Assembly: GCA_007131555.1 (NCBI GenBank)
Contig: SLQH01000477.1
Coordinates: forward strand, 1-30,626
Direction: 5' to 3'
Source: Planctomycetota bacterium
GTDB lineage: Bacteria; Planctomycetota; UBA11346
DNA: 30,626 bases
Of the stretch, positions 1-14,012 are shown piece by piece. The number at the start of each line of letters is the position of its first letter. Positions within the stretch are counted from its first letter, which is position 1. The notes under the pieces are model-generated. The model made no database searches. It saw nothing but the letters and a program-made list of their open reading frames with translations, and was not told the origin of the DNA. The position numbers and the translations under genes were made by a program.

Positions 1-1
1 C

Positions 2-150
2 TACGCTTGATGCTCTGTTTGTCAGAAATCCATATCACGTATTGCGTCTTTTTACGTCTGGCCTGATTTCAGCACGAAGAGCACGAAGTACACGAAGAAA
101 GACTGTTTCCATTCAGTCCGTTCGGCTTTTCGTGGTTGCTGAACACCATT
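2..150. repeat. Dispersed ~150-bp repeat, copy A, with 3 internal 9-bp units; probably cut by the window edge
   Basis: Aligns to 2688-2863 with 13 substitutions by hand count; copy B has an extra 27 bp. Units AGCACGAAG-AGCACGAAG-TACACGAAG are followed by AAAG. Confidence 0.95.
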
Positions 151-154
151 ACTG

Positions 155-934
155 TCAGCGGGCTCCTTCTTCAATACGGGCGATCAGGGCGGCATCGATG
201 ACCTCACGACCGCCGCCGTCACGATGCTCAATGACGACACTGGTCAATTGACCATCAAGGTCAATGCGGCGGGTGATGACATGGCATAACATGGTGCCGC
301 CGTTGGTGAAGATGATGCGGTCAAGAGGGCGCTGCTTGGCCGTTTGGTCGCTGGTGCCTGCATCATCATCATCGTTGTCTGCGCTCTTATCCTGGTCCAC
401 GTCCTCATCACTGTCTGGGTCATCATCGTCCTGATCATGGCCGTTGTCCTCAGCAGATTTCTCAGCAGCGTCGTTTTGGGCCTCCTGCAAGGCCTTTTCA
501 GCGGCAGCTTGGGCTTCGGCCACGGCCTGTTGTAATTCAGCCATGCGTCGTTTTTCTGCCTGCTCCTGGCGCCAGGCGGCGACCCATTGCGCCCAGGCTT
601 GCGGCGAGTTGTGCTCGGGATGTTCTGGGTAGCCGCTGCCGATCTGGCCTCGAGAATCGGGCCTGCTGCGGGCGCTGACACCTGAGATGGTGGCCAGAGC
701 GGCGTAGGCATGGCGGCGGGTTTGACGGTCCTCGGTTGCTTGCAACAGGAGGGTGTAGGCCTGATCACGATCAGGCAGACTGGTCAACGCCGCGACCGCG
801 GCCTGCTTGCGTTGGGCATTTTGGGTGGTCATGGCCTCACGGAACTGGGTCACGACATCATCATCGTCAGCCAGGGATGAGGCCATGCCAAGGCCGAGTA
901 GCAGCACGACAGCGATGATACGAGAGATGTTCAT
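155..934 (-). CDS. Hypothetical secreted protein with Ala/Gln-rich helical region and Asp-rich linker
   Basis: 259-aa ORF with signal-peptide-like N-terminus (MNISRIIAVVLLLGLGMASSLA). ATGA overlap with the upstream DJ-1 gene at 931-934. Confidence 0.75.
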   Translation of the reverse strand: MNISRIIAVVLLLGLGMASSLADDDDVVTQFREAMTTQNAQRKQAAVAALTSLPDRDQAYTLLLQATEDRQTRRHAYAALATISGVSARSRPDSRGQIGSGYPEHPEHNSPQAWAQWVAAWRQEQAEKRRMAELQQAVAEAQAAAEKALQEAQNDAAEKSAEDNGHDQDDDDPDSDEDVDQDKSADNDDDDAGTSDQTAKQRPLDRIIFTNGGTMLCHVITRRIDLDGQLTSVVIEHRDGGGREVIDAALIARIEEGAR

Positions 935-1503
935 GACGGGCTCCCGAGGGGGGTATAGGTGGTCAGCAGGGCGCTGGCGACCTCGCTGGCGACCTGCGTC
1001 GACACCAGGGCTGCGACCAGGTGCAGACCAAGGTCAATGGCCGTGCCGGGTCCCTGGCTGGTGATCAGGGGTCGATCAATGACCACGGGGGCGTCGATCC
1101 ATTGTCCCTGATCGGCGAAGCGCTTGCTCAACGATGGATAGCTGGTCAGGCGACGATTGGCGGCCAGGCCACGTGGCAAGAGGGCCAGCGGACTGGCGCA
1201 GATGATGGCCAACCAGCGTTCGGCCATCAATTGGGCGGAGATGAGGTCTTGGATGCGTTCATCCTGGCTGTGGTATTCCGCGGCGGGCATGCCGCCCGGC
1301 AGGAATATGGCATCGGCGGTGCTGCTGAGGCACTCGTCCAGCAGGAGGTCGCCAGCCATCGGCAGGTTGCGACTGCCCCGCTGGACGAGGCTGTCGGTCA
1401 TGGCCAGAGAGACCGTACATCCGCCCCTGACCAGGATATCGGCCACGGCCATGGTCTCGATCTCTTCCGCGCCGGGCGGTACGATGACGAGTACATCAGG
1501 CAT
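931..1503 (-). CDS. yajL: DJ-1/PfpI family protein (YajL/ThiJ-like)
   Basis: Motifs GAEEIE, FLPGG, AIICASP (nucleophile Cys) and TSQGPGT. Start moved to ATG 1503 (MPDVLVIV), which has an AGGGGA SD. Confidence 0.9.
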   Translation of the reverse strand: MPDVLVIVPPGAEEIETMAVADILVRGGCTVSLAMTDSLVQRGSRNLPMAGDLLLDECLSSTADAIFLPGGMPAAEYHSQDERIQDLISAQLMAERWLAIICASPLALLPRGLAANRRLTSYPSLSKRFADQGQWIDAPVVIDRPLITSQGPGTAIDLGLHLVAALVSTQVASEVASALLTTYTPLGSPS

Positions 1504-1671
1504 GGTGATTGATCCCCTGGTATGCAGCTGATCCGGCATGATGAGAGGTCTGGCATCGTCGCTTGTCAATGGCCAACATCATTCATTATCAAACACCATG
1601 GTTCGGATGCAAGCGGCGGGGTAGAGGCCAGCACAGTGGATATGGGCGCCGAGTGGCGTATCATCATACAT

Positions 1672-1738
1672 GGCGATGCCCTGGGCCATGATGGGTTCCA
1701 CCCAGCTTGGTGATCGCTCGTCATCAAGGGCCATCGCC
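1672..1738 (+). other. Imperfect 67-nt stem-loop upstream of the LolA-like gene
   Basis: Nested pairings 1672-1678/1732-1738, 1679-1682/1727-1730, 1688-1695/1717-1724 and 1699-1702/1709-1712. Confidence 0.5.
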
Positions 1739-1766
1739 TGGCGTCAAGACTGGACCGGAGACAGGT

Positions 1767-2555
1767 ATGCATATGCAGCAGTTGGTCGTGTTGATGTTGG
1801 TCATGGTCTGGGCCGCGCTAGGCGGGGCCGAAGAGGCTGCCCAGGAGGCCGAGGTCCAAGTGGAAGAGGCTGGCGCAGATGAAGCGACCCCGCCGCAGGA
1901 GGCAGAAGACGGCCTCTTGACCCGCATTGCTGCGGCCCATCAAGAACGGACCAGGGTCCAGGGACGTCTGCTGCAACGCATGCTGCGCGCTGATGACCCC
2001 ATGCGGCAGGTCACCGAGTACACGGTGGCCTTCCATCTCAGGGCTCCAGATCACTACCATCTGCGCCTCCAGCCGGTTGAGGATCAGGAGAGCACTGAGT
2101 GGTTCCTGAGCAATGGCGCATACAGTTGGCATGCGGTCCAGGATTTTTCTGATGAACCGCCTCTGGTGACCAAGAAGGCCATTGAACGAGACGAGGAGAG
2201 TCGCGACGCCTTTGCCCGCATCAGCGACTTCTTTCGTATGGAACTCGACGGTCTGCGCGAAGATTTCCGCATACAGGCAATCGATGTCGAGACCAGCCCT
2301 GAGGACGACGAGGATCGTCCTGAGCTATTGGTCGATACGGCTCGCTACCTGGTCCTGCTGACGGCGCGGCGGCGGGAGTTGCAGGAGCATGTCGACAAGG
2401 TGTTCATCGAACTTGATCAGGATTTTGGAACCGTGGCTCTGCGGGTGATCGATGGTAGTGGCAACACCCGCGAGTTCCTTGTCCAGGACATCAGCTATCC
2501 TGATGAGATCGACAAGAAGCTCTTTGTGTGGCCGGAGCCGCGCACCTCCGAGTGA
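1767..2555 (+). CDS. LolA-like outer-membrane lipoprotein carrier fold protein
   Basis: Signal peptide, acidic linker, then a beta-rich pattern (FHLRAPDHY, WFLSNG, VIDGSGNTREFLVQDISY...KLFVWPEP) resembling LolA. GGAG SD before ATG 1767. Confidence 0.65.
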   Translation: MHMQQLVVLMLVMVWAALGGAEEAAQEAEVQVEEAGADEATPPQEAEDGLLTRIAAAHQERTRVQGRLLQRMLRADDPMRQVTEYTVAFHLRAPDHYHLRLQPVEDQESTEWFLSNGAYSWHAVQDFSDEPPLVTKKAIERDEESRDAFARISDFFRMELDGLREDFRIQAIDVETSPEDDEDRPELLVDTARYLVLLTARRRELQEHVDKVFIELDQDFGTVALRVIDGSGNTREFLVQDISYPDEIDKKLFVWPEPRTSE

Positions 2556-2647
2556 GTGTGCGCTAGGAGCAATGGTGTGAGGCAACAGCGTCACAATACC
2601 AGATCCTTCTGGCCTGATCAGACCCAGATAGTTGTCTTCATGGATTC

Positions 2648-2674
2648 CTTCGTGATCTTCGTGTCCTTCGTGGT
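2648..2674 (-). repeat. Three inverted 9-bp units CTTCGTGAT-CTTCGTGTC-CTTCGTGGT
   Basis: Reverse complement is ACCACGAAG-GACACGAAG-ATCACGAAG, the same unit as 2757-2810. Confidence 0.9.
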
Positions 2675-2687
2675 CAAAAAATGTTCT

Positions 2688-2863
2688 TACGCTTGATGCC
2701 CTGTTTGTCAGGAATCCATATCACGCATTGCGTCTCTTTACGTCTGATCTGATTTCACCACGAAGAGCACGAAGTACACGAAGTACACGAAGTACACGAA
2801 GTACACGAAGAAAGAGTGTTTCTGTTCAGTCCGTTCCGCTTTTCGTGGTTACAGAACACCATT
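2688..2863. repeat. Dispersed repeat copy B with 6 internal 9-bp units (2757-2810)
   Basis: Direct copy of 2-150. Units ACCACGAAG, AGCACGAAG and 4x TACACGAAG, then AAAG. Confidence 0.95.
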
Positions 2864-2889
2864 GGCGCTAAGAGTCTGTCCTGTCTGAA

Positions 2890-3049
2890 CCTAAATCCGG
2901 CTGTCGGCTTGCGGCTGTAGGGCTACTTTACAAGGCGATATCGCCGGATTCAGGCTGTCACTCAGAAGGTGAACCGGTTCTGAGTGCGCATATCCGCTTG
3001 AATGGCAACCCTACAGCCTAAAGTCCAGAACCTAACTGCCGTTTTTAGG
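2890..3049. mobile_element. MITE-like 160-bp foldback element
   Basis: Terminal inverted repeats CCTAAATCCGGCTGT / CCTAAAAACGGCAGT (12/15) and flanking direct repeat CTGAA (2885-2889, 3050-3054). Inner inverted repeats at 2913-2922/3009-3018 and 2959-2967/2978-2986. Confidence 0.6.
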
Positions 3050-3075
3050 CTGAACCCTGCTTGCGGGAATACGTC

Positions 3076-4101
3076 ATGTCTCTGACCTTCGCCGACGCCC
3101 GAGTCGCCCTTGTCGCACCGGGAGGTCTTGATGAACAGTCCACCGTCGCCCTGATCGACCTGCTGCTCTCAGGCAGCCTGGCCCCTGAAGAGGGGGCCGA
3201 CCTGCTGGTCACCTGGGCCCAGCGGGGCGAGACCGGAGCCGAGTTGGCGGCGGTGGTCCGGGCCCTGCGGGCCCGGGCGGTGCCGGTGGCCTTGACCCGC
3301 TCCAGCGTCGATGTGGTCGGTACGGGGGGGGTCGAGGGCAGCCGCTTCAATGTCAGCACCACCGTGGCCTTCGTCCTGGCCAGCGCCGGCGTGGCTGTGG
3401 CCAAGCATGGCAACCGGGGTTCGCGCAGTCCCAACGGCAGTTTCGACTTCCTGGAGGCCCTGGGCATCCCCATCGACTTGCCGCCAGCAGCCCTGACCAC
3501 CCTGCATCAGGATCATGGCCTGTGCTTCCTGTTCGCCCGGGCCCTGCATCCGGCCATGGCAGCGGCCGTACCCTACCGCAAGCTGGCCGCCCGACGGACC
3601 ATCTTCAACCTCGCCGGGCCCTTGGCCAACCCGGCCCCGGTCGACCATCTGCTCATCGGGGCCGTCGATCAGCGCAGCGCCCTGGTGCTGGCCCAGGCTC
3701 TGCGCCTGCTGGGTGACGGCCGGGCCCTGGTGGTCTGTGGCGAACCGGGCATCGACGAGGTCTCGATCAGCGGCCCGACCCATACCTGGAATGTCACCGC
3801 CCAGGACATCAACCAGGGGATCCTGACCCCAGCCCCGCAATCAGTGGTCGACCGCGCCCTGCTGCCCGGTGGGGATGCCACCACCAACGCCGCCCTGTTC
3901 GCCCGCCTGATCGCCGGTGATCCCTGTGACGGCCTGGCCGAGATGGTCCAGGTCAACGCCGGTTTGGTCTTCGACCTCCTCGACGGTCAGCCCCCCGTCT
4001 ACCATGGCCCTGGTTACCATCGTGCCGCCCAACGGCTGGCCGATGGCCGCGTGGCCCGCTTCTTCACTGCCTATCAGGCGGCGGCAGTGGGGCTTGCCTG
4101 A
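3076..4101 (+). CDS. trpD: Anthranilate phosphoribosyltransferase
   Basis: Motifs DVVGTGG, FNVST, KHGNR, RTIFNLAGPLANP and GIDEVS. Confidence 0.95.
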   Translation: MSLTFADARVALVAPGGLDEQSTVALIDLLLSGSLAPEEGADLLVTWAQRGETGAELAAVVRALRARAVPVALTRSSVDVVGTGGVEGSRFNVSTTVAFVLASAGVAVAKHGNRGSRSPNGSFDFLEALGIPIDLPPAALTTLHQDHGLCFLFARALHPAMAAAVPYRKLAARRTIFNLAGPLANPAPVDHLLIGAVDQRSALVLAQALRLLGDGRALVVCGEPGIDEVSISGPTHTWNVTAQDINQGILTPAPQSVVDRALLPGGDATTNAALFARLIAGDPCDGLAEMVQVNAGLVFDLLDGQPPVYHGPGYHRAAQRLADGRVARFFTAYQAAAVGLA

Positions 4102-4121
4102 GGTCTTGCCAGGACTATCAT
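4094..4121 (+). promoter_or_regulatory. Putative sigma70 promoter TTGCCT-N16-TATCAT for the POTRA-domain gene
   Basis: Near-consensus hexamers overlapping the trpD stop codon. Confidence 0.4.
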
Positions 4122-4196
4122 CACTTTTCTCAATTTATCTTCCATTCCGGCCTGAGTTCATCGGGTCAATGCTGATCATTGGCTAAGGATTCTGTG

Positions 4197-6656
4197 ATGC
4201 ATGCAGGGCGCTTGCTATGTGCTGTCTTGGCAGTGGTTGCGTGGATGACTCATGCGGTGATGGCAGAGGAGGATGACGGGCCCTGGTCCGAGGATCAGTT
4301 CATCAAGAAGACCTTCAATATCAATCGGGTATTGTTCAAGGGCAACGAAGCCTTTACTGATGCCAAGATGCGAGCCTCTCTGGCCCATCATCCAGATGTC
4401 CGTAGCGCCATGCATGCATTTTCAGGAGTGGATTTCCGTCGGGCCCTGAAAACCGGCATCACTTTGGGATACCTGGCATCTGGTTTTCCTGAGGTGCAGG
4501 TCCGTTTCTCACTGATAGACCAAGATGGTTTGCCGTATCTCTGCTTTTCGGTTACTGAGGGGCCGCGCTATAATCTGCGTTCGCTGGAGGTTGTCGACAG
4601 CCCGCCGGATTATCCTCCTGAACTGATCAAAGCCCTGTTGACCCAACCGCTCATCGACCATGCTCCACAACAGCCAGATGATCCGCGCCAACCAAGCCAT
4701 GATCCGCTGTTGACCATTGGTGGCCATGCCCGCTGTGACATCATGTGGCCCAAGCGGGCTGCGCAGATCATCAATCGGTGGATAGCCCGGTATCATCCTG
4801 ACGGTCATGTGCCGATGCAGATACGGACGCATGCCTTTGTTGTCAATCCATATGAGATGCGTCAGTTGGTGCGGGTGCTGCCGGATACCGAGCTGCCGAT
4901 CATTCGTGCTATTCGATGCGAGGGCGACCTGCATCAGGTCCCCGAGGCCATCACCGGGTGGCTGGCGAGCGAAACAGGTCTGGATGTCGGAGTTCCCGCC
5001 TCATGTCTGATCAAGTATCGGGTGCGGCGGATCTTGCGGGATTCAGGGTGTTTTGTTCGCTGGGACATGGTGTTTGAACCTGATCCTCAGGATTCCCAGC
5101 AGGTGACTGTTGTTCTGCATCTTGATCAGCATGCCACCCTCCCCCTGGCTGGAGCAGCGCTGACTGTGATACAAGAAGACATGAAACGCCTCCACGATCG
5201 TCTTCATCAGGACTTGTCCGGACAGGATGCAGGTTTTGTGTTGACCTTTGCCCCCGATGACACCGACTTCGTGGTGGACATGGCCTTCTGGCCTGGTCAG
5301 GGTGTTTTCTTGGGCCTCAAGCAGGATGAGGGCACTGCAGACTACGATCTGTCGTTACTGCTGACGGCTGATCAGACCGTGTGGTCATCAGCCCGGAGGG
5401 CAGTCCGGTACCGGTTGGCGCGAACAGACCAGTATGGCATGAATGTGACGGTGTCGCTGAAACCATTGTCCTCATCACCTGACGTACCAGAACACCCCCT
5501 TCAAGAGGCTGACGATAGTCTGCCCGCTCCACCCTTTAGCATATTTTTCGGTTACGGAGCCTCAAGCGGGTCACGAGGACTCAGCGTGGATTTTCGGTCC
5601 ACCCCCATGCCGTTTCTGTCATTGGCAACATATGCTGCAGAACGCACGGAGCGTGATGATGGCACCGTGCGCCTGCTGTTTGCCAATCAGGCTGAGGTGC
5701 TGTTTGATCAGGAATACCGCCTCCTCCATGCTTCAGTCACCCTCCCCGAAATGGTAGCACTTGTCATGCGTCGTGCTTCGGGTCGTTTCATGGAACTCCA
5801 GGATCAGGGTACTGACCAAGTCGATGATGGTTGGCAAATCCAGCAGGTTGACGGATTGTTGTCTCTTGTGCAGATCATGGCGACAGACCTTGAGCCGTTG
5901 CTCAGTCTCCTTTCCCCAGCAGGTCAAAGCTCTTTTTTTGGGGACTTGGGTCCTGTTTTTGCTGAAAAGATGCGTGGTGTCACGGCGCTCTTGAGGGCCA
6001 TGGAGTCGGCGGTGAGTGATGTGCTGTCAGCGGTTGCGGGAGACGCATTCAGCATACCTGAACTTCCTTCCGATGAGATCAATGCTGCTGCCATGATGCT
6101 GGCTCATCTCGCAGCAAGCGCGCAGGAGTTCATGGCCCATGATGCCTGGCCGGTCGTCATCCTGTCTGAGGCCAGTCGTTATGTTGAGGGCGTATCAACG
6201 CATGGTCAGCTTACCGTGCGCAAACTGATGCATGATGACCGGATCGGCCCCTTGGGGTACTTCTGTGCTGCGGTCTTGTTGGATTGGATCCATGTTCACG
6301 ACACCGCCCGGATATTTGCAGAGAAGGCCCTGCAGACCAATAGTGCCGAGGCTGTCCTGCGGGAGTTGACTCTGCTTCTGGGCGACCCGCAGCCCTTGGT
6401 GAGCGTCTTCAGCGTCATCAATGCCGAGGACTTCTCCTTGCTGTTGCCGGTCTCAGACCGTTCTGCGGTGATTGCCGCGATCCGTTCCTTGCAGGCCGCA
6501 CCCGAAGACCAGGACCGTTCAGTTCTGTTGCCGGCTATTTTTGACGCCATCTGGCCGCACGAGATGCAGGCGCTGTTCCGCTATGCAATTGAGGCCCTGG
6601 TGCCTGAGCGTGATCTGGAAGGGCCGACGATATTGCAGCAGCCCAAAGGGATGTAG
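4197..6656 (+). CDS. Large secreted hypothetical protein with N-terminal POTRA-like domain(s)
   Basis: Signal peptide, then INRVLFKGNEAFTD...GYLASGFPEVQV...FSVTEGPRY, resembling BamA/TamA POTRA repeats. No recognisable C-terminal beta-barrel. TAAGGA SD before ATG 4197. Confidence 0.6.
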   Translation: MHAGRLLCAVLAVVAWMTHAVMAEEDDGPWSEDQFIKKTFNINRVLFKGNEAFTDAKMRASLAHHPDVRSAMHAFSGVDFRRALKTGITLGYLASGFPEVQVRFSLIDQDGLPYLCFSVTEGPRYNLRSLEVVDSPPDYPPELIKALLTQPLIDHAPQQPDDPRQPSHDPLLTIGGHARCDIMWPKRAAQIINRWIARYHPDGHVPMQIRTHAFVVNPYEMRQLVRVLPDTELPIIRAIRCEGDLHQVPEAITGWLASETGLDVGVPASCLIKYRVRRILRDSGCFVRWDMVFEPDPQDSQQVTVVLHLDQHATLPLAGAALTVIQEDMKRLHDRLHQDLSGQDAGFVLTFAPDDTDFVVDMAFWPGQGVFLGLKQDEGTADYDLSLLLTADQTVWSSARRAVRYRLARTDQYGMNVTVSLKPLSSSPDVPEHPLQEADDSLPAPPFSIFFGYGASSGSRGLSVDFRSTPMPFLSLATYAAERTERDDGTVRLLFANQAEVLFDQEYRLLHASVTLPEMVALVMRRASGRFMELQDQGTDQVDDGWQIQQVDGLLSLVQIMATDLEPLLSLLSPAGQSSFFGDLGPVFAEKMRGVTALLRAMESAVSDVLSAVAGDAFSIPELPSDEINAAAMMLAHLAASAQEFMAHDAWPVVILSEASRYVEGVSTHGQLTVRKLMHDDRIGPLGYFCAAVLLDWIHVHDTARIFAEKALQTNSAEAVLRELTLLLGDPQPLVSVFSVINAEDFSLLLPVSDRSAVIAAIRSLQAAPEDQDRSVLLPAIFDAIWPHEMQALFRYAIEALVPERDLEGPTILQQPKGM

Positions 6657-6666
6657 CGGCTGGCTG

Positions 6667-7164
6667 CTACCCACGCCGCGCCCGTCGGGCGATATCGCGT
6701 TGGGCGTCGCGTTCGCGTTCGCGGTTGCGCAGGGCCTCGCGCTTGTCGCCCTTGCGGCGGCCCCTGACCAGGCACAGTTCGATCTTGGCCCAGCCCTTGC
6801 GGAAGTAGATCGACGCTGGCACCAGGGCCAGGCCCTTGGTGCGCAGACTGCCGGCCAGGCGGACCAGTTGGCGCTGATGCAGTAGCAGCTTGCGGGTGGC
6901 TAGCGGCTCATGGTTGAAGATGCCGGCGGCCTGACGGTAGGGGGCGATGTTGAGCCCATGCAGCCATAGCTCGCCGCGCTCGTCGAGGCGGGCATGGGCA
7001 TCAGCCCATTGGCCACCGTGGTCACGCAGGCTCTTGACCTCGGTCCCGGTCAGCACCATGCCGGCCTCGAAGCGTTCGAGGATCTCGAAGTCATGGCTGA
7101 CGCGTCGGTTGCGCATCACCATCAGGATGTCGTCGGGCGCTTTCTTGCCAGGACCGTGTGCCAT
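6667..7164 (-). CDS. smpB: SsrA-binding protein SmpB
   Basis: Motifs NRRVSHDF, EAGMVLTGTEVKSLR, RKLLLH, YFRKGWAKIEL and basic tail RKGDKRE. Start moved to ATG 7164. Confidence 0.97.
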   Translation of the reverse strand: MAHGPGKKAPDDILMVMRNRRVSHDFEILERFEAGMVLTGTEVKSLRDHGGQWADAHARLDERGELWLHGLNIAPYRQAAGIFNHEPLATRKLLLHQRQLVRLAGSLRTKGLALVPASIYFRKGWAKIELCLVRGRRKGDKREALRNRERERDAQRDIARRARRG

Positions 7165-7231
7165 GGTCAGGAGCATACAGCCCGGATCGCCCAGCCAAGG
7201 CCCGGAGCCCGGCGGCGCCGGGGCTGTGGTG

Positions 7232-7252
7232 GTAGCGCCGGCTTTAGCCGGC
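7232..7252 (+). repeat. GTAG-type REP-like palindrome
   Basis: GTAGCGCCGGCTTTAGCCGGC, identical to 7368-7388. Confidence 0.75.
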
Positions 7253-7322
7253 ATGGACGGCGGTCTTTAGTCTGCCGATTGGGCATTGGCCGTTTTTGAC
7301 CGTGATGGTTCTAGTCAACCCA

Positions 7323-7440
7323 TGTGAGCACACGATTATATGCGCAGATATGTGAAGCCGCTCTTTCGTAGCGCCGGCTTTAGCCGGCGCTACGTGTGAG
7401 CGGCAAACCGCACATCGGCTGTTGTCGTGTTGTGCGCACA
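7323..7440. repeat. 118-nt foldback with a REP palindrome at its apex
   Basis: Perfect 13-bp stem 7367-7379/7382-7394. Outer stems at 7357-7363/7398-7404, 7350-7354/7411-7415, 7332-7336/7424-7428, 7328-7331/7432-7435 and 7323-7326/7437-7440. Confidence 0.75.
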
Positions 7441-7510
7441 GACAACCAGGGTTGCGGGCCATGGTCCGTCTCAGCCGCCTTGAACGACAGCCCTCCCGCC
7501 TGATGTCGCC

Positions 7511-8398
7511 TCAGCCCTGGTCCCGCACGGTCAGCAGACGCAGGGGCTGGTCGGCGGCGACGAAGCGGGCGGCGCAGCCGGGGGGGATCGGTCGTTGGAG
7601 GTGGGCGCCGTCGAGATAGCAGCAGATGCCGGGGATGGTGGGGGTCAGTTGCAGCTGCTGGGGTGGTGCCTGGCAACCGCTGGTGCGGGTGAAGCGGCGA
7701 TGGCCGAAGAAGGGTTCGCGCACCAGGTAGAGCAGGACCGGGCCCGGCGGGGGCGGAGCGGCACCGGCCGAGGCGATGGCGCCGCTGGCCCCAGTGGCGG
7801 TGCTGATCCAGACGCCAGACGCGGCCTGGACCTCCTCGCCCTGGGCGTCATGCAGACGGTAGCGGGTCATGGCGGCGGGGTTGGCATTGGTGAACAGGGC
7901 GTCGTTGAGGATCAGGTCGCCAGCCCCGTTGCGCATCCGGCCGCTGCCCAGATCGACGATGTGCAGGCGCAGGCGATGGCAGCGTTCCTCGGCCGCCCGG
8001 CCGGCCAGCCAGTCCTCGACCAGGGCGGCCACGGTCTCGGCCCGGATGCGGGTGTAGTGACCGACGCTGCGGTGGGGGTCGGAGTTGACGCTGATCACCG
8101 GGGTGTCGTTGAGCAGGGCATGGCAGGCCAACACGGTGCCGTCACCGCCCACGGTGACGATCAGGTCGGCCTCGGCGGCGGCCTGGGCATCAAGGACATC
8201 GACCTGACGCTCATCGACCCGGCAGTGATGCAGTTGCTGGTGGACGATGCCCAGGCAGCGATGGTGGGCGGCGTGGGCCTCTTCCAGTTGGCGGCGGTCC
8301 TGGGCCCCGATCGCGTCCAGGCAGGCGACCTCGTCGGCCGACCAGCGTTCCAGGGCGGTGCGCTTGCTGACCACCAGGACCCGCGGCCCGGACATCAT
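7511..8398 (-). CDS. NAD(H) kinase family protein, divergent subtype
   Basis: Motifs VTVGGDGT, VNSDPHRSVG, LILNDALF and ASGVWISTATG. ATGA overlap with dxr. Confidence 0.8.
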   Translation of the reverse strand: MMSGPRVLVVSKRTALERWSADEVACLDAIGAQDRRQLEEAHAAHHRCLGIVHQQLHHCRVDERQVDVLDAQAAAEADLIVTVGGDGTVLACHALLNDTPVISVNSDPHRSVGHYTRIRAETVAALVEDWLAGRAAEERCHRLRLHIVDLGSGRMRNGAGDLILNDALFTNANPAAMTRYRLHDAQGEEVQAASGVWISTATGASGAIASAGAAPPPPGPVLLYLVREPFFGHRRFTRTSGCQAPPQQLQLTPTIPGICCYLDGAHLQRPIPPGCAARFVAADQPLRLLTVRDQG

Positions 8399-9549
8399 CC
8401 ACCTCCCTGGTCGACGGCATGTCGTTGGCGGACCTCGGTATCGGCGGCGATGATGGTGGCCAGATCCGGGTCGCAGATGTTCGGGGCCCTGCTCACAGCC
8501 GCTTCCAAGGCGGTGAAGATGCCGGTGAAGGGGATGCGGCCGGCCAGGAAGTCGGCCACCGCCAGTTCGTTGGCGGCATTGAGGATGGTCGGGGCCACCC
8601 CGCCCTGGCGCAGGGCGGCGCGGCCGAGGTCGATGGTCGGAAAGCGGTCGAGATCCGGGGCGGTGAAGGTCAACTGGGCCAGACGGGCCAGATCGGGGGC
8701 GGCCACCGGGCCGGGCAGATGGCGCGGCCAGGTCAGGGCCAGCTGGATCGGGGTGCGCATGTCCGGCAGGCCGAGCTGGGCCAGCAGGGAGCCGTCGCGA
8801 AAGGCCACCAGGCTGTGGACGATGGACTGGGGATGGATGAGGATTTCGATGCGCTCGGCCGGGACATCGAACAGCCAATGGGCCTCGATCAGCTCCAGGG
8901 CCTTGTTCATCAGGGTGGCCGAGTCGATGGTGATCTTGGGGCCCATGTTCCAGGTGGGATGGGCCAGGGCCTCATCAGGGCTGACCGTCTCCAGGTCGGG
9001 GCGCTGCCGCAGAGGCCCGCCGCTGCCGGTGATGATCAGGCGTTCGACATCCGCCGGATCATGGCCGGCCAGGCACTGGAAGATGGCCGAGTGCTCGCTG
9101 TCGATGGGCAGCAGGCTGGCTCCGCTGGCCGCTGCGGCCCGGCGGATGAGGGCCCCGGCCATGACCAGCGGCTCCTTGTTGGCGATGCCCAGACGCTTGC
9201 CGGCAGCCACCGCCGCCAGGGTCGCCTGCAGGCCGGCGGCTCCGACGATGGCGGTGATGACGGTGGTCACGGCTGGCGCGGCGGCGACCTCTTCCAGGGC
9301 CTGGGGGCCGGCGGCCGTGGCGATGCCGCTCCCGGCCAAAGCCTGGCGCAGATCCTCATGGCCGGCCGGATCGGCGATCACGGCCACCTGGGGGTGATGG
9401 CGGCGGGCCAGCTCGGCCAGGGTGTCGACCTGTCGCCAAGCAGTGATGGCGTGGATGCGGCAGCCCAGATCCTCGGCCACGGCCAGGGTGTTGCGGCCGA
9501 TGCTGCCGGTCGCGCCCAGGATGGTCAGGCATTGCCCGGACGGGGTCAT
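8395..9549 (-). CDS. dxr: 1-deoxy-D-xylulose-5-phosphate reductoisomerase
   Basis: Motifs LGATGSIG, ANKE, PIDSEH, HPTWNMGPKITIDSATLMNKALE and NAANE. Start moved to ATG 9549 (ATGA overlap with hisC). Confidence 0.97.
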   Translation of the reverse strand: MTPSGQCLTILGATGSIGRNTLAVAEDLGCRIHAITAWRQVDTLAELARRHHPQVAVIADPAGHEDLRQALAGSGIATAAGPQALEEVAAAPAVTTVITAIVGAAGLQATLAAVAAGKRLGIANKEPLVMAGALIRRAAAASGASLLPIDSEHSAIFQCLAGHDPADVERLIITGSGGPLRQRPDLETVSPDEALAHPTWNMGPKITIDSATLMNKALELIEAHWLFDVPAERIEILIHPQSIVHSLVAFRDGSLLAQLGLPDMRTPIQLALTWPRHLPGPVAAPDLARLAQLTFTAPDLDRFPTIDLGRAALRQGGVAPTILNAANELAVADFLAGRIPFTGIFTALEAAVSRAPNICDPDLATIIAADTEVRQRHAVDQGGG

Positions 9550-10616
9550 GCCAGGGCTCGCAGGGCGGCCAGCAGACGGCAGTTCTCCTGCGGGGTGCCG
9601 GTGTTGATGCGCAGGTCGTGGCGCAGCTGCGGGGTATCCCACCAGCGGACCAGCAGGCCGCGCTGGGCCACGGCGCGCATGATCTCGCCGGCCCGGGTCC
9701 CGACCCGGCACAGTAGGAAGTTGGCCGCCGAGGGGGGCCAGGTCCAGCCCAGGGCCTTGACGCCCTCCTCAAGCTGACGCCGGCCGGCCAGGGTATCAGC
9801 CACGGTACGGCGGAAGTAGGCCCGATCACGCAGGGCGGCGATGCCCATGGCCTGACTGAGGGCATTGACGTTGTAGCTGTCCTTGACCTTGTTGAACAGG
9901 CTGATCAGGTCCGGATGGGCGAACAGCAGCCCCAAGCGGGCCCCGGCCAGACCGTAGCTCTTGGAGAAGGTCCGCAGGACGATGAGGTTGGGCAGCGATT
10001 CCAGTTCCGGCAGCAGGCTGGCCCCGGCGCCGGCGAAATCGACATAGGCCTCATCGACCACCACCACCGCCTCGGTGGCGCGGGCCAGGGCAGCCAGTTG
10101 GGCGCGCGGGATCAGGGTGCCGGAGGGGTTGTTGGGATTGGCGATCAGGATCAGGCGCGGCCTGGCGGCCGTCAGGTCGGGCAGGCCCCAGTCGGCGGCG
10201 AAGGGCACGGTGACCAGCTGGGCCTCCTGGAGGGCGGCCAGGGTCTGGTAGAGGCCGTAGGTCGGATGGGGCACCACCACCCGGTCGCCGGGCCGCAGCA
10301 GGCTGCGGTAGATGATGGTCAGGCAGTCATCAGAACCGTTGCCGACCAGGATGCGGTCGGCCGCGACCCGGTAGACCCTGGCGGCGGCCCGCCGCAGGGC
10401 GCTGGCGGTCGGATCCGGATAGCGGCGCAAGGCATTGGGGTCGATGCTGGCCAGCACCTGGAAGACGCCGGGAGCCGGGGGCCAGGGCGACTCGTTGGTG
10501 TTGAACTTGATCGCCCGTGGTGACTGTTCGCCGGGCACATAGCCGGCCATGGCCTGGACCGCAGGGCGGACCAGGGCCGTGGCCGGACAGCTGGGATTGA
10601 CTGGGGCTTTGGGCAT
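9546..10616 (-). CDS. hisC: Histidinol-phosphate aminotransferase
   Basis: Motifs YVPGEQ, NTNESPW, RYPD, GNGSD, NPNNPSG, DEAYVDF and RTFSKSYGLAGARLG (PLP Lys). Confidence 0.95.
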   Translation of the reverse strand: MPKAPVNPSCPATALVRPAVQAMAGYVPGEQSPRAIKFNTNESPWPPAPGVFQVLASIDPNALRRYPDPTASALRRAAARVYRVAADRILVGNGSDDCLTIIYRSLLRPGDRVVVPHPTYGLYQTLAALQEAQLVTVPFAADWGLPDLTAARPRLILIANPNNPSGTLIPRAQLAALARATEAVVVVDEAYVDFAGAGASLLPELESLPNLIVLRTFSKSYGLAGARLGLLFAHPDLISLFNKVKDSYNVNALSQAMGIAALRDRAYFRRTVADTLAGRRQLEEGVKALGWTWPPSAANFLLCRVGTRAGEIMRAVAQRGLLVRWWDTPQLRHDLRINTGTPQENCRLLAALRALA

Positions 10617-10638
10617 GGCGGCAGCTACCTGGGCTTGT

Positions 10639-11259
10639 TCAGCCAGCGCGGATCCGGGCCAGTTCGGCGGCCGTCTCACGGGCGGCCTGTTCGATCTGCT
10701 CAGGACTGCCCGAGGCCAGATTGCCGCCCATGCCCACGGCCACCGCCCCGGCGGCGAACCAGTCCTTCATGTTGCCCAGCGACACGCCGCCGGTCGGCAT
10801 CATGTGGATGTCGGGCAGGGGGGCCTTGACGGCCTTGATGTAGTCTGGCCCCACGGCGCTGCCGGGGAAGATCTTGACCGCTGCCGCGCCAGCCGTCCAG
10901 GCCTGGACGATCTCGGTCGGGGTCAGCCCACCGGGCATCATGGGGATGCCCAGATCAAGGGCCGCCGCCAGCAGATCCGGCTCGTAATGCGGCGATACGG
11001 CAAAGCGGGCCCCGGCGGCATGGGCCTGTTCCAGCTGGGCGACACTGCGCACCGTCCCGACCCCGATGACCGCCGTATCGCCCATCTCGTCAACCATGCG
11101 GGCGATGGCCTCACAGCAGTCAGGCGTGGTATAGGTCAGCTCCAGGGCCCGCAGACCACCCGCCAGCAGGGCCCGGCAGATCTCAGCGGCATGATCAACG
11201 CCCTTGGCGCGGATCACCGCCACCACGCCGAGGTCCTTGAGGGTTTCAATGAAGTCCAT
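10639..11259 (-). CDS. eda: KDPG/KHG aldolase
   Basis: Motifs VVAVIR, LELT, GVGTV, TPTE, VKIFP and PTGGV. AAGGAG SD. Confidence 0.92.
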   Translation of the reverse strand: MDFIETLKDLGVVAVIRAKGVDHAAEICRALLAGGLRALELTYTTPDCCEAIARMVDEMGDTAVIGVGTVRSVAQLEQAHAAGARFAVSPHYEPDLLAAALDLGIPMMPGGLTPTEIVQAWTAGAAAVKIFPGSAVGPDYIKAVKAPLPDIHMMPTGGVSLGNMKDWFAAGAVAVGMGGNLASGSPEQIEQAARETAAELARIRAG

Positions 11260-11471
11260 GACTGCTCCTTCGTGTGCTGCGGGGTCAGGGGGCTGGGGAT
11301 CAAGGGGCTGACGTTCCGCCCCAAGGACACTGCCTTATCGTCCCCGCAGCTGTCAGACAAGCGGCATCCGCGCTCGTGTGCGCGGGTGGGGGGTGATGGA
11401 GGGGGCGTTTCGGCATTGCGTGTGGCTGGCACCCCAGCTCTGATAGCCAAGCGTTGGGCCTGAAATGGCCT

Positions 11472-11565
11472 CACGCAGAGACCGCAAAGAGCGCAACGGC
11501 CCTGCGGGGGGCGGCGGAATACGGGGATCAGACATGCACATGTCTGCATGCTCTTGGCGCTCTTG
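11472..11565 (+). repeat. 9-bp-periodic head (CACGCAGAG-ACCGCAAAG-AGCGCAACG) with a complementary tail, at the left island flank
   Basis: AAGAGCGC (11487-11494) pairs with GCGCTCTT (11557-11564). The palindrome 11529-11546 lies between them. Confidence 0.6.
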
Positions 11566-11748
11566 AACGAAGCAGGCGTGAGGAATCTTCTGGAATGGCC
11601 GTACACGAGCGCGCGCCCGGATCGCATAGGGAATTGGGTGACACGGCAGGGGCCACCAGGAACCCTGCAGACCCTCAAAGAGGACTCTGAGACAGCGATG
11701 CCGGAGATTGCGGTGGGAGTGTTTGCCTTTTTCCCCAACAGTTCCGGC

Positions 11749-11757
11749 TGGTATAAA
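11749..11757 (+). promoter_or_regulatory. Extended -10 element TG-G-TATAAA, 6 nt before the MNT ATG (leaderless geometry)
   Basis: Position relative to ATG 11764; no SD present. Confidence 0.5.
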
Positions 11758-11763
11758 GTGCTC

Positions 11764-12069
11764 ATGGCAGTCGATATCGTTCTAGACCGTGTGCGCCTGG
11801 CCGATCTGTGTCGGCGTTACCATGTGGCCAAGCTGGAGCTGTTTGGCTCGCGTGCCAAGGGGACTGCGGGTCCAGAGAGCGACGTGGATTTGCTGGTGAC
11901 GTTTACGGGGCGGACACCCGGTTTGGCCTTTGTGTCCATGGTCGAAGAGCTGGAAGCCATTTTCGGACGTCATGTCGATCTGCTGACGCGCGGTGATGTG
12001 GAGCGAGACGAGAATCCTATTCGTCGCCAGAGCATCCTCGGATGCACCGAGTCCCTGTATGCTGCTTAA
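11764..12069 (+). CDS. MNT minimal nucleotidyltransferase antitoxin (MntA-like)
   Basis: Exact GSX10DXD motif (GSRAKGTAGPESDVD) and GRHVDLL. About 101 aa; overlaps a HEPN gene. Confidence 0.93.
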   Translation: MAVDIVLDRVRLADLCRRYHVAKLELFGSRAKGTAGPESDVDLLVTFTGRTPGLAFVSMVEELEAIFGRHVDLLTRGDVERDENPIRRQSILGCTESLYAA

Positions 12070-12367
12070 CGCTGATGATATCGCTCGCCTTCAGGACATG
12101 GTCATTTGGTAGCGAAAGGCGATCGCCATCCTCGGCGGATTGTCATTCGATGCGCTGATATGCAACGAGGAGAAACGTCTGGCATTGGTCCGTTGCATTG
12201 AAGTTATCGGCGAAGCGGGGCAGAAGGTAGCCCCAATCGTCAAAGACGCACTGCCAACTGTCCCGTGGCCAGCCATGTACGGCATGCGTAACCGGCTGAT
12301 TCATGACTATGGCAATACCAACTACGAAGTCGTGTATGATGCGGGCAAAAACGGGGACAGGCAATAA
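12059..12367 (+). pseudogene. HEPN/DUF86 RNase toxin (HepT-like) pseudogene
   Basis: ATG 12059, in-frame TAG at 12110-12112, then CIEVIGEA, PWPAMYGMRNRLIHDY (RX4HXY). The usual last helix is missing after YEVVYD. Confidence 0.88.
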
Positions 12368-12971
12368 GTCATTCGACCCGCCGCTGTCAGAGGCCGAAGT
12401 GGCCGGCATCATCGACGGCCTGCCCCGCGCCTCGGTCTACGACCTCCGGGCGGTGTGCCTCCTGGAGTTGCTTTACGGCTGCGGCCTGCGGATCTCGGAG
12501 GCCCTGAATCTCGACCTGGACGACCTCGACCTCCACCGCCGCACCGTGCTCATCCGTGAGAGCAAGCACGACCAGACCCGTCTCGTCCCGTTGCCCAGGA
12601 CCGCCAAATCCAGCCTGCAGGCCTACCTCAGCCTTCGCAAGGCGCTGGTCATCGGTCCCGACCGAGGCGCTCTGTTCCTGACCCAACAGGGCCGACGGTG
12701 GGCCATCGGGTCGATCTACGTCATCTTCAGACGCCTCAACGACCAGGGCCTCTGCGCCGGCCGCACCCTGCATCCCCATATCTTCCGGCACTCCATCGCC
12801 GTCCACCTGCTGCGACGCGGAGCGGACATCCGCTACATCCAGCAGTTCCTGGGCCACGCCAGCCTCGACACCACCAAGATCTACCTGCGGCTGGTGCCAG
12901 GGCACCTCAAAGAGGACTACGAGGCGGCTATGCCGGAGATCGAGGTGGGGGCGGGGGCGTCGGATTGGTAG
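12336..12971 (+). pseudogene. XerC/D-like tyrosine recombinase, catalytic domain only
   Basis: Motifs YGCGLRISE (R), ESKH (K), HIFRH (HxxR), LGH and TKIY (Y) are all present. The N-terminal core-binding domain is absent and homology starts near PPLSEAEV. Confidence 0.8.
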
Positions 12972-13005
12972 TGGACGCACGAAAGATGTACGATATCATG
13001 TACAT
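12972..13005 (+). promoter_or_regulatory. yefM-yoeB promoter/operator: TGGACG-N16-TATCAT overlapped by TGTACG and TGTACA cores
   Basis: Cores at 12987-12992 and 12999-13004 are 12 bp centre to centre, the geometry known for the E. coli yefM-yoeB operator. Confidence 0.75.
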
Positions 13006-13028
13006 AACGAACAAGTAGGGGGAGAGCC

Positions 13029-13283
13029 ATGGGAGCCATCGCCGCGACCGAAGCCCGAAGGACAATTTTTGCGCTGATCGAGCGGGTTTCAGAGAACCGC
13101 GAAGCCGTGGAGATCACCTCCAAGCATGGGAATGCCGTGCTGATGAGTCTGGATGAATATGAGTCGCTGCAAGAGACAGCGCATCTGCTGCGCTCGCCTG
13201 CGAATGCCAAGAGACTCCTGGAATCCATCGGACAGGCTCGTAAGGGCAAGGGGCGGGAAAGGAATCTTGCCAAGTGCGATTGA
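13029..13283 (+). CDS. yefM: YefM/Phd family antitoxin
   Basis: Motifs VEITSKHGNAVLMSLDEYESLQETAHLLRSPANAKRLLESI; 84 aa; GGGGGAG SD. Confidence 0.95.
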   Translation: MGAIAATEARRTIFALIERVSENREAVEITSKHGNAVLMSLDEYESLQETAHLLRSPANAKRLLESIGQARKGKGRERNLAKCD

Positions 13284-13528
13284 TCTTCACGCCCCATGCG
13301 TGGCAGGAGTATCAGCAGTGGTTGCAGGAAGACCGGGCCGTCTTGAAGCGGATCAACCGGCTCATCGAAGATGCGTTGCGCGAACCATTTTCCGGCATCG
13401 GCAAGCCTGAACCACTCAAGCACATGTTGCAGGGCGCATGGTCGCGTCGCATCACCGAGGAGCACCGCCTTGTCTACTTGGTCGAAGGCGATGATCTGGT
13501 GGTGGTCCAGCTGCGCTACCACTACTGA
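13274..13528 (+). CDS. yoeB: YoeB/Txe family toxin
   Basis: Motifs FTPHAWQEY, GIGKPEPLKH, WSRRITEEHRLVY and RYHY C-terminus. Confidence 0.96.
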   Translation: MRLIFTPHAWQEYQQWLQEDRAVLKRINRLIEDALREPFSGIGKPEPLKHMLQGAWSRRITEEHRLVYLVEGDDLVVVQLRYHY

Positions 13529-13813
13529 GCGATTCACGCAGGCGGGGCGGCCATCCTCGTGGATGACCAGCCCGTCCCGACGCATAGGCTCCCGGTCATG
13601 CGAGGGATGCTGAGCAGGTTGTGCCGGGGTGCTGGCCGGATGGCGATCGCCGTCCTGCTGCTCCTTGTCGGCATGCTGACCCCGGCTCCCCCATGCCCTC
13701 AGTCCATCGCCCCAACGGGCCACGTCCTCCATGCGCGAAGTCCACAAACATCAATTCGACCCCAGTCGCCGCTTTGGCTGCATTGCACAGGTCGCTGTGT
13801 GCGCCGGGCTTTT

Positions 13814-13840
13814 CTCTGTGTGCTCTGTGCTCTTTGTGGT
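13814..13840 (-). repeat. 9-bp-periodic tail CTCTGTGTG-CTCTGTGCT-CTTTGTGGT, at the right island flank
   Basis: Reverse complement ACCACAAAG-AGCACAGAG-CACACAGAG-AAAAG has the same architecture as 2757-2814. Confidence 0.8.
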
Positions 13841-14012
13841 AAATAATCGGGCCGTCGGTTCCTGAATCATCCCTGATGTGGTCAGCGCATAGGAAGACCA
13901 GGGATGCACGGAAGTGTGCTCAGTAACCTGTATCCGACCGTGTCAAGACGTCCGGATGCTTCTTGGTGCAATTCCATCGGTCCGCGTTCCTGAAGCCGCC
14001 CTCCATCGCCCA

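Follow-up and report, generated by a model that had tools for sequence, protein, structure and literature searches.

Tandem 9-base repeat arrays in a Planctomycetota draft genome as candidate arms of miniature elements related to GxxExxY cassettes

What are the short arrays of 9-base tandem repeats that recur between the genes of contig SLQH01000477.1 from the Planctomycetota bacterium assembly GCA_007131555.1? This contig, analyzed over its whole length of 30,626 nucleotides and called the window here, contains five such arrays. A preliminary description, made from the sequence alone, had taken them for marks of non-core DNA and for possible cis-acting ends of a cassette-type mobility system, with foldback ends analogous to attC or repetitive extragenic palindromic (REP) sites, rather than for ordinary variable-number tandem repeats. 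Within its draft genome (3.2 Mb in 564 contigs, 77% complete), the window is contig C274; genes were predicted with a simple codon-usage caller, and 86% of the genome is called coding. All five arrays are present where they had been described:

71-97: CACGAAG array of three units
2648-2674, minus strand: CACGAAG array of three units, ACCACGAAG GACACGAAG ATCACGAAG as minus-strand reading
2757-2810, plus strand: CACGAAG array of six units
11472-11498, plus strand: CGCAGAG/CGCAAAG-type array
13814-13840, minus strand: solo CACAGAG-type arm, ACCACAAAG AGCACAGAG CACACAGAG as minus-strand reading, with no inverted partner

Tandem Repeats Finder assigns period 9 to four of the five arrays, and period 7 to 13819-13833. 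The common grammar that had been ascribed to them applies in part: the CACGAAG and CACAGAG types start with ACCAC, but the CGCAGAG type begins with TCAC, and a trailing AAAG is found in some subtypes and is missing from the rest. DNA folds bear out the pairings proposed earlier, i.e. 2757-2771 with 2838-2850 and 11487-11494 with 11557-11564.

With moderate confidence, we favor the explanation that the arrays form the arms of miniature elements, which are probably mobile and belong to a barely described cassette family with a putative mobilizer. The arm of such a small foldback element normally consists of three 7-base words at 9-base spacing, and its start is a fixed outer end, T-rich and followed by ACCAC or TCAC. 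The copies in the window, which are gene-less, would be relatives of a widespread cassette whose arms enclose the gene of a PD-(D/E)xK nuclease of about 125 amino acids (GxxExxY); less often, the gene inside such arms encodes a four-helix bundle. The hairpin modules of this genome are also built into larger repeats that spread as units, namely an inverted-end element of about 300 bp and a tandem unit of about 115 bp. The 7-base words may be recognized by a protein acting in trans, for which the nuclease of the cassette itself is the most plausible candidate. This protein would be responsible for moving or copying the element; copies without a gene would remain in place and change by slippage.

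The link to a cassette is based on related genomes. The preliminary description had mentioned that similar arrays flank small stand-alone genes, and for GxxExxY and four-helix-bundle genes this is what we observe. When inverted arms are required within 160 bp on both sides of a gene with an ungapped score of at least 16, 20 out of 26 full-length GxxExxY genes (Pfam: PF13366) from 17 genomes of the same phylum lie between inverted arms, compared with 0 out of 92 shifted controls, whose maximum score is 13. In the relatives searched, inverted tandem-word arms also enclose 9 out of 28 four-helix-bundle genes (Pfam: PF05635), although with other words (controls: 0 out of 94). The arm words of the cassettes have a period of 8-10 and include CACAGAG, CACAAAG/CACGAAG, CGCAGAG, CACGGAA, CGCGGAG and others. 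Some of them recur in the window: the GxxExxY arm ACCACAGAGGACACAGAGAGCGCAGAGG of a same-genus genome is the window's own CACAGAG arm, and a CGCAGAG-like arm is found around a GxxExxY gene in a same-family genome. Similarity among the GxxExxY proteins and similarity among their arms are correlated (Mantel r 0.235, reached in 11 of 5000 permutations). A gene-carrying element with the arms of the window is thus seen in other genomes, but not in this one. The window contains no GxxExxY gene (PF13366/TIGR04256), its elements being gene-less, and no PF05635 gene was found in the genome.

The GxxExxY family has been described as one of unknown function with many horizontal transfers (PMC3424549), and the literature that we searched contains no description of array arms tied to a GxxExxY/PF13366 gene. 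Residues G29, E32, Y35, D72, E82 and K84 are invariant in the family, with D72/E82/K84 as the nuclease triad. The protein has no sequence match among solved structures and was placed by fold search only: its structural model (predicted local distance difference test, pLDDT, 95.7) displays a minimal PD-(D/E)xK core, and the nearest structures are Cas4 SSO0001 and lambda exonuclease, with a TM-score normalized by query length (TMq) of 0.5-0.6.

The genome search that had been suggested for the pattern of the preliminary description returned 56 arrays of at least three units. Exactly three units are present in 54 of them, four in one and six in another, the latter being 2757-2810 of the window. 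The reversed pattern has no match in this genome and two matches across 40 relatives. An unbiased scan for any 7-mer occurring three times at period 9 recovers CACGAAG (24), CACAGAG (13) and CGCAGAG (6), with at most two occurrences for each other core; counted by period, the genome has 57 loci at period 9, ten at period 7, seven at period 8 and none at period 10. Called genes are avoided by 53 of the 56 arrays but overlapped by 88% of random 27-mers; these placements and the scans establish that the 9-base tandem arrays are real and far beyond chance. For 34 of the 56 arrays, an inverted partner unit is located at a distance of no more than 200 nt; 12 are solo.

At roughly ten contigs, arrays or their modules lie within about 100 bases of the contig ends, window positions 1-150 included. 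The array repeats probably account for much of the fragmentation of the assembly.

The arrays of the window are themselves the arms of larger dispersed modules, i.e. an element of about 300 bp, a hairpin unit of about 115 bp, and one solo arm:

2568-2865, plus strand: composite element of about 300 bp, similar to miniature inverted-repeat transposable elements (MITEs), with both CACGAAG arrays inside and imperfect 18-bp inverted ends at 2568-2585 and 2848-2865
1-150, plus strand: right-hand part of a second composite copy, cut by the contig edge, with the three-unit array 71-97 and a one-unit inverted partner near 128-138
2757-2850, plus strand: hairpin module of array 2757-2810, a loop of about 28 nt and the one-unit inverted partner 2839-2850 (fold z about -3.2)
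11409-11674, plus strand: CGCAGAG-type hairpin unit with array 11472-11498 and a degenerate inverted arm at 11552-11583 (fold z -3.2)
13841-13982, minus strand: module flanking the outer side of the CACAGAG arm, with 84% identity to C466:5285-5460 and 81% to C6:15624-15690

About 10 copies of the composite element, whose consensus end is GCAATGSYGTTCAGCAAC, are found in the genome; they are 76-95% identical and their flanks are unrelated. The region 2560-2870 folds with a z of -4.4. The copy at the contig edge (1-150, fold z -3.0) shares 77% identity with 2688-2863 and 93% with C154:1751-1899. The outer stem of the CGCAGAG unit is formed by 11469-11476 and 11576-11583; copies of this unit, complete or partial, number about 45 across the genome and are often arranged in tandem, one every 115 bp or so. 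The solo arm at 13814-13840 lacks a partner and has a fold z of -0.5; at other loci of the genome, the CACAGAG arm is part of a hairpin of about 90 bp with a conserved loop. Throughout, the units within one array differ in their spacers, and dispersed copies keep their loops, not their flanks. The elements hence combine several features of MITEs: they are small, non-coding, dispersed and multicopy, and they have inverted ends, which are the 18-bp ends in the composite element and the arrays themselves in the hairpin modules.

At C6:14270-14475, a further array family, with CGCAAAG words spaced at 9 bases, is present as two inverted arms around a loop of about 150 nt; the pair is situated upstream of a gene for a Crp/Fnr-type regulator (assigned by eye), and the two flanks of this gene are mosaics of several hairpin modules. 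Next to the composite element, positions 2885-3053 belong to a separate repeat of about 160 bp with at least 97 copies of at least 120 bp in the 3.2-Mb draft. Its consensus is one long hairpin (-87 kcal/mol with RNA parameters) and its arms contain the 7-base periodic words GGCTTTA/GGCTGGA, in which they resemble the arms of some four-helix-bundle genes in relatives. This repeat differs from the 9-base arrays in that it also occurs between divergent genes (14 of 70).

Could the arrays simply be tandem repeats born by slippage, with neither function nor mobility? Slippage has certainly left its mark, as the right-hand array of the composite element has 2, 3, 4 or 6 units across paralogous copies, the six-unit array of the window being the longest. 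However, 54 of the 56 arrays have exactly three units, spacers differ within an array, the arrays share a conserved outer end and pair with inverted partners, and identical words occur across phyla. We give this explanation hardly any weight. The earlier statement that the arrays are no ordinary variable-number tandem repeats is upheld by the unit number fixed at three, the conserved outer end and the inverted pairing.

The distribution of the arrays extends far beyond this genome. CACGAAG triplets with 2-base spacers occur in at least 120 stretches, from about 15 phyla among the matches listed; the chance expectation, estimated from the size of the collection, is about 0.3. Among the carriers are the cultured Herpetosiphon aurantiacus DSM 785, Methylobacter luteus, Thioalkalivibrio denitrificans and Desulfobacter vibrioformis. 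The matches listed include 86 arm pairs with loops of mostly 20-150 nt, and these are mostly gene-less hairpins; a GxxExxY gene is present in only two of the 86 pairs, both on contigs of Desulfobacterota and exactly between CACGAAG arms 376 bp apart. The first unit is preceded by AC (82% and 93%), which follows a T-rich stretch, and carriers from different phyla share the outer end TT[C/A]AC. Where both arms of a hairpin have three units (36 hairpins), 97% of core positions are complementary between the arms, but only 40% of spacer positions, compared with 38 +/- 4% for shuffled partners. The conservation of words without spacers favors protein recognition of the word over selection for a stable stem, and the non-complementary spacers argue against one arm having been copied from the other.

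A protein that reads three 7-base words need not belong to a mobile element; it could also be a DNA-binding protein of the host, such as a global regulator or a nucleoid protein. Conserved words, free spacers and a word number fixed at three would all be expected for such sites, and in Geobacter metallireducens 21 paired sites have been called predicted global regulator binding sites (PMC2700814). Nevertheless, divergent promoter spacers are free of arrays, the sites are missing from close relatives, and about 15 phyla among the matches listed have the same word but no known shared regulator. Moreover, the arms travel with the nuclease gene. A host regulator is for these reasons an improbable reader of the arrays.

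A far-reaching version of the explanation preferred here, according to which the arrays are the cis ends of pan-bacterial tiny mobile cassettes, the words are read by the cassettes' own Cas4/lambda-exonuclease-like GxxExxY nuclease, and the hairpins of the window are trans-mobilized miniatures, is conceivable, and we put it forward tentatively.

The placement of the arrays relative to genes is relevant for a further alternative. The hairpins could be RNA structures useful to the host, which are transcribed with the upstream gene, serve as processing, stabilizing or insulating signals, and persist through selection rather than mobility; examples of such structures are the RNase III sites in the intervening sequences of 23S rRNA, and REP elements or bacterial interspersed mosaic elements (BIMEs). 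Consistent with this, all 32 arrays with two called neighbors adjoin the end of one gene or more (12 between convergent genes, 20 between tandem genes, none between divergent genes), and a comparison repeat family has 14 of 70 copies in divergent spacers according to the same gene calls. The hairpins also fold better than shuffled sequences, and the heptamer repeats of Xanthomonas and Nostoc are reported to share the placement bias and to be transcribed (PMC4692102). What is difficult to reconcile with selection for a host function is the variation from 0 to 60 copies within one genus, together with the absence of the element from the orthologous spacer of congeners. Furthermore, inter-arm spacers are complementary at chance level only. 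T runs lie 5' of the arm and A runs 3' of the hairpin, hence the hairpins are not intrinsic terminators, and Rfam scans of the whole window and of 13500-14050 revealed no credible family. Overall, we consider host RNA structures unlikely.

More direct information on mobility can be expected from close relatives, but the nearest genomes, two of the same genus, are only about 70% identical in DNA. The order of the window genes at 155-4101 is kept in both congeners, from which it follows that what lies between the arrays at 97 and 2648 is a conserved set of core genes and no cassette; the view that the arrays mark non-core DNA is not tenable here. The spacer before trpD, in turn, measures 505 bp in the window and about 100 bp in the two congeners, and nearly the whole difference is accounted for by the composite element and the second repeat. 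The comparison of filled and empty loci that had been proposed thus yields a trpD spacer without the element in two congeners, but no exact empty site at nucleotide resolution. Three genomes of the genus have 60, 25 and 0 matches to the array pattern, and three further members of the phylum have 145, 46 and 29. When TrpD was used as the seed of a metagenome search for filled and empty strains, no relative was returned, near-identical records perhaps being outside the search. For the GxxExxY cassette of this genome, which lies between cheR-like and cheB-like genes, the empty-site alignment is ambiguous because relatives have several copies of the chemotaxis genes.

Several observations weigh against the mobile cassette family as an explanation. 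Neither transposition nor excision nor an exact empty site was seen, with the nearest genomes at the distance mentioned above. Beside several copies of the composite element stand CTAGG-like words, which could be part of the ends or of a neighboring repeat and are not a clear target-site duplication. The sole GxxExxY gene of this genome (contig C490, the one with cheR-like and cheB-like genes on either side) has CACGAAT/CGCGAAT arms. Two genomes with 14 and 29 arrays lack a detectable GxxExxY gene at a completeness of 86% and 98%, respectively. Over 41 genomes, both arrays and GxxExxY genes are found in 10, only arrays in 8, only genes in 8 and neither in 15; by rough estimate, this genome-level co-occurrence is weak and not significant. 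The covariation of proteins and arms could result from shared descent alone. Finally, the draft genome is no more than 77% complete and is split into 564 contigs, and its genes were called with a crude method of our own.

What is the relation of the arrays to the islet of toxin-antitoxin and recombinase genes, whose ends they had been suggested to form? Downstream of the gene for 2-keto-3-deoxy-6-phosphogluconate (KDPG) aldolase (10639-11259), both congeners carry genes that are found here on another contig, which places the islet (11764-13528) at a synteny break. It contains MntA, a HepT frame with an in-frame TAG, a 5'-truncated Xer-like recombinase, and YefM/YoeB. A CGCAGAG-type hairpin flanks it on one side and the solo CACAGAG arm on the other; being of unlike types, these arrays cannot pair. 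Nowhere in the window do matched arms bracket a gene. We infer that the arrays beside the islet are bystanders or recombination scars and not its ends.

This arrangement had also invited the idea of integron-like attC sites, at which the neighboring tyrosine recombinase would capture toxin-antitoxin cassettes; indeed, a recombinase fragment and two toxin-antitoxin pairs lie between two arrays. The recombinase (12303-12971) matches only positions 105-292 of the XerC/XerD profiles, which makes it the C-terminal half of a Xer-like protein (XerC 158 bits), and it scores 99.7 bits against the integron integrase model, far below the cut-off of 265. Besides the unlike types of the flanking arrays, no array separates the MNT/HepT, xer and YefM/YoeB genes, so that there is no cassette row. 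The window arrays examined have no GTTRRRY core at either end: their arms begin with ACCAC or TCAC and consist of tandem 9-mers, in contrast to the R''/L''-L'/R' core sites of attC with their GTTRRRY ends. The assembly contains only two tyrosine recombinase matches against 56 arrays, the one of the window being the Xer-like fragment, and this is not the co-occurrence that had been anticipated for a mobilizer of this kind. ARAGORN detected no tRNA or tmRNA as candidate attachment site. Integron-like sites are accordingly a very improbable interpretation.

The islet has a history of its own. The Xer-like recombinase is devoid of its N-terminal third, and the last 45 bases of the fragment (12905-12949) are duplicated with 84% identity at 11673-11717, just upstream of the MNT gene, which suggests that this locus was rearranged or inserted twice. 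The HepT frame (12071-12367) is interrupted by an in-frame TAG at 12110-12112, after which 75 open codons are left; the HepT toxin is thus probably inactivated, with the MntA antitoxin gene intact.

Another candidate for a mobilizer adjoins the solo arm:

13729-13813, plus strand: frameshifted 5' remnant, about 28 codons, of an insertion-sequence gene of the Y1/HUH-like type (about 370 amino acids), ending exactly at the array start

Three related genomes have full-length genes whose 5' ends share 72-77% identity with the remnant (tblastn: 67% over 30 amino acids); its Pfam Y1_Tnp match is weak, with 22.1 bits just under the cut-off of 23 bits. The remnant thereby raises the possibility that the arrays are REP-like repeats moved by a HUH/Y1 transposase of the genome, similar to the REP-associated tyrosine transposases (RAYTs), as the genome encodes Y1-like genes and one remnant abuts an array at 13813/13814. 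The full-length copies on contigs C409 and C558, however, have their own inverted ends, ATTGCCATCCACTGTAT, and no arrays, and the same gene occurs in relatives without an adjoining array. The Y1_Tnp gene at C483:1468-1929 (42 bits) is likewise flanked by a different repeat, one of 40 bp. As regards flanking, the link to HUH/RAYT genes that had been envisaged does not hold for these genes. We consider it quite improbable that they move the arrays, and the gene represented by the remnant was rejected as mobilizer on account of its other ends. We read the cut-off of the remnant as a scar that a deletion or recombination left at the array, which accords with the synteny break. The 40-bp REP-like repeat is located at C483:1411-1450; its other sites listed number more than 50 and all lie outside the window. 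This repeat and the C483 Y1_Tnp gene are likely a REP/RAYT pair distinct from the arrays. In summary, the idea of cassette ends is partly supported: it is right on the family and wrong on this locus.

How do the elements compare with known systems? MITEs such as Correia/NEMIS elements (Neisseria miniature insertion sequences) are small, non-coding elements with inverted ends and many copies, and they have gene-carrying full-length relatives. The inverted ends here differ from theirs in that they are tandem word arrays; a clear target-site duplication is missing, and the gene of the full-length form is a Cas4/lambda-exonuclease-like nuclease of about 125 amino acids, not a known transposase. 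The CTAG-like flanks of the composite element may point to an IS5-type origin. REP sequences and their paired form, the REPINs, which are associated with RAYTs, are intergenic hairpin repeats downstream of genes, often in inverted pairs, and are imperfect palindromes of 20-40 nt. The arm of the present elements, by contrast, is a 27-nt array of three 9-mers, whose pairing needs a second, separate arm. The analogy to attC or REP sites drawn in the preliminary description fails on all these points: there is no IntI-type integrase, no GTTRRRY core and no cassette row, the Y1 genes are flanked by other repeats, and the unit is no palindrome of 20-40 nt. The intervening sequences of 23S rRNA with a four-helix-bundle open reading frame (PF05635) consist of a small gene inside inverted arms that are able to form a long stem; the elements of the window are situated between protein genes, outside rRNA, and are gene-less. 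With the GxxExxY hairpin cassette, the window elements share inverted arms of tandem 7-9-nt units and a fixed outer end, but the GxxExxY gene is not inside.

Some short tandem words have been reported before. The class 2 sites of Geobacter metallireducens are multicopy intergenic sites of three tandem 9-nt repeats, mostly in opposite-strand pairs at variable distance (Aklujkar et al. 2009, PMC2700814). The same architecture of repeats in threes and pairing between strands is found here, too, and the Geobacter consensus TCTCCGTSY corresponds, on the other strand, to a CACGGAG-type word, one base from the words of our arrays. The word nevertheless differs, and the sites were predicted regulator sites in one genome, with no link to a cassette or to mobility. 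Other short tandem words of non-coding DNA are the TAACTGA repeats of Beggiatoaceae (PMC4679880) and the heptamer repeats of Xanthomonas and Nostoc (Rehm et al. 2015, PMC4692102), which are reported to have a preferred unit number, to be scarce between divergent genes and to be shared by distant lineages. Both have a 7-nt period without spacers, and those of Xanthomonas and Nostoc are G-rich and were interpreted as quadruplex-forming; the arrays of this study have a period of 9, no G tracts and a preferred number of three.

Tandem-word hairpins fill much intergenic space in many bacteria and have until now been noted piecemeal, as putative regulator sites, quadruplex repeats or short tandemly repeated repetitive (STRR) sequences. 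They also matter for genome assembly, as the array repeats probably break short-read assemblies; in the window, they coincide with a synteny break and a truncated gene. The window is a gene-less example, which adds breadth and is not the key exemplar. The tie between arms and nuclease gives PF13366, a large family of conserved nucleases, a candidate DNA partner, and suggests a new kind of small selfish element. If this is true, these elements would follow a route of transposition or homing that is independent of the known transposase families.

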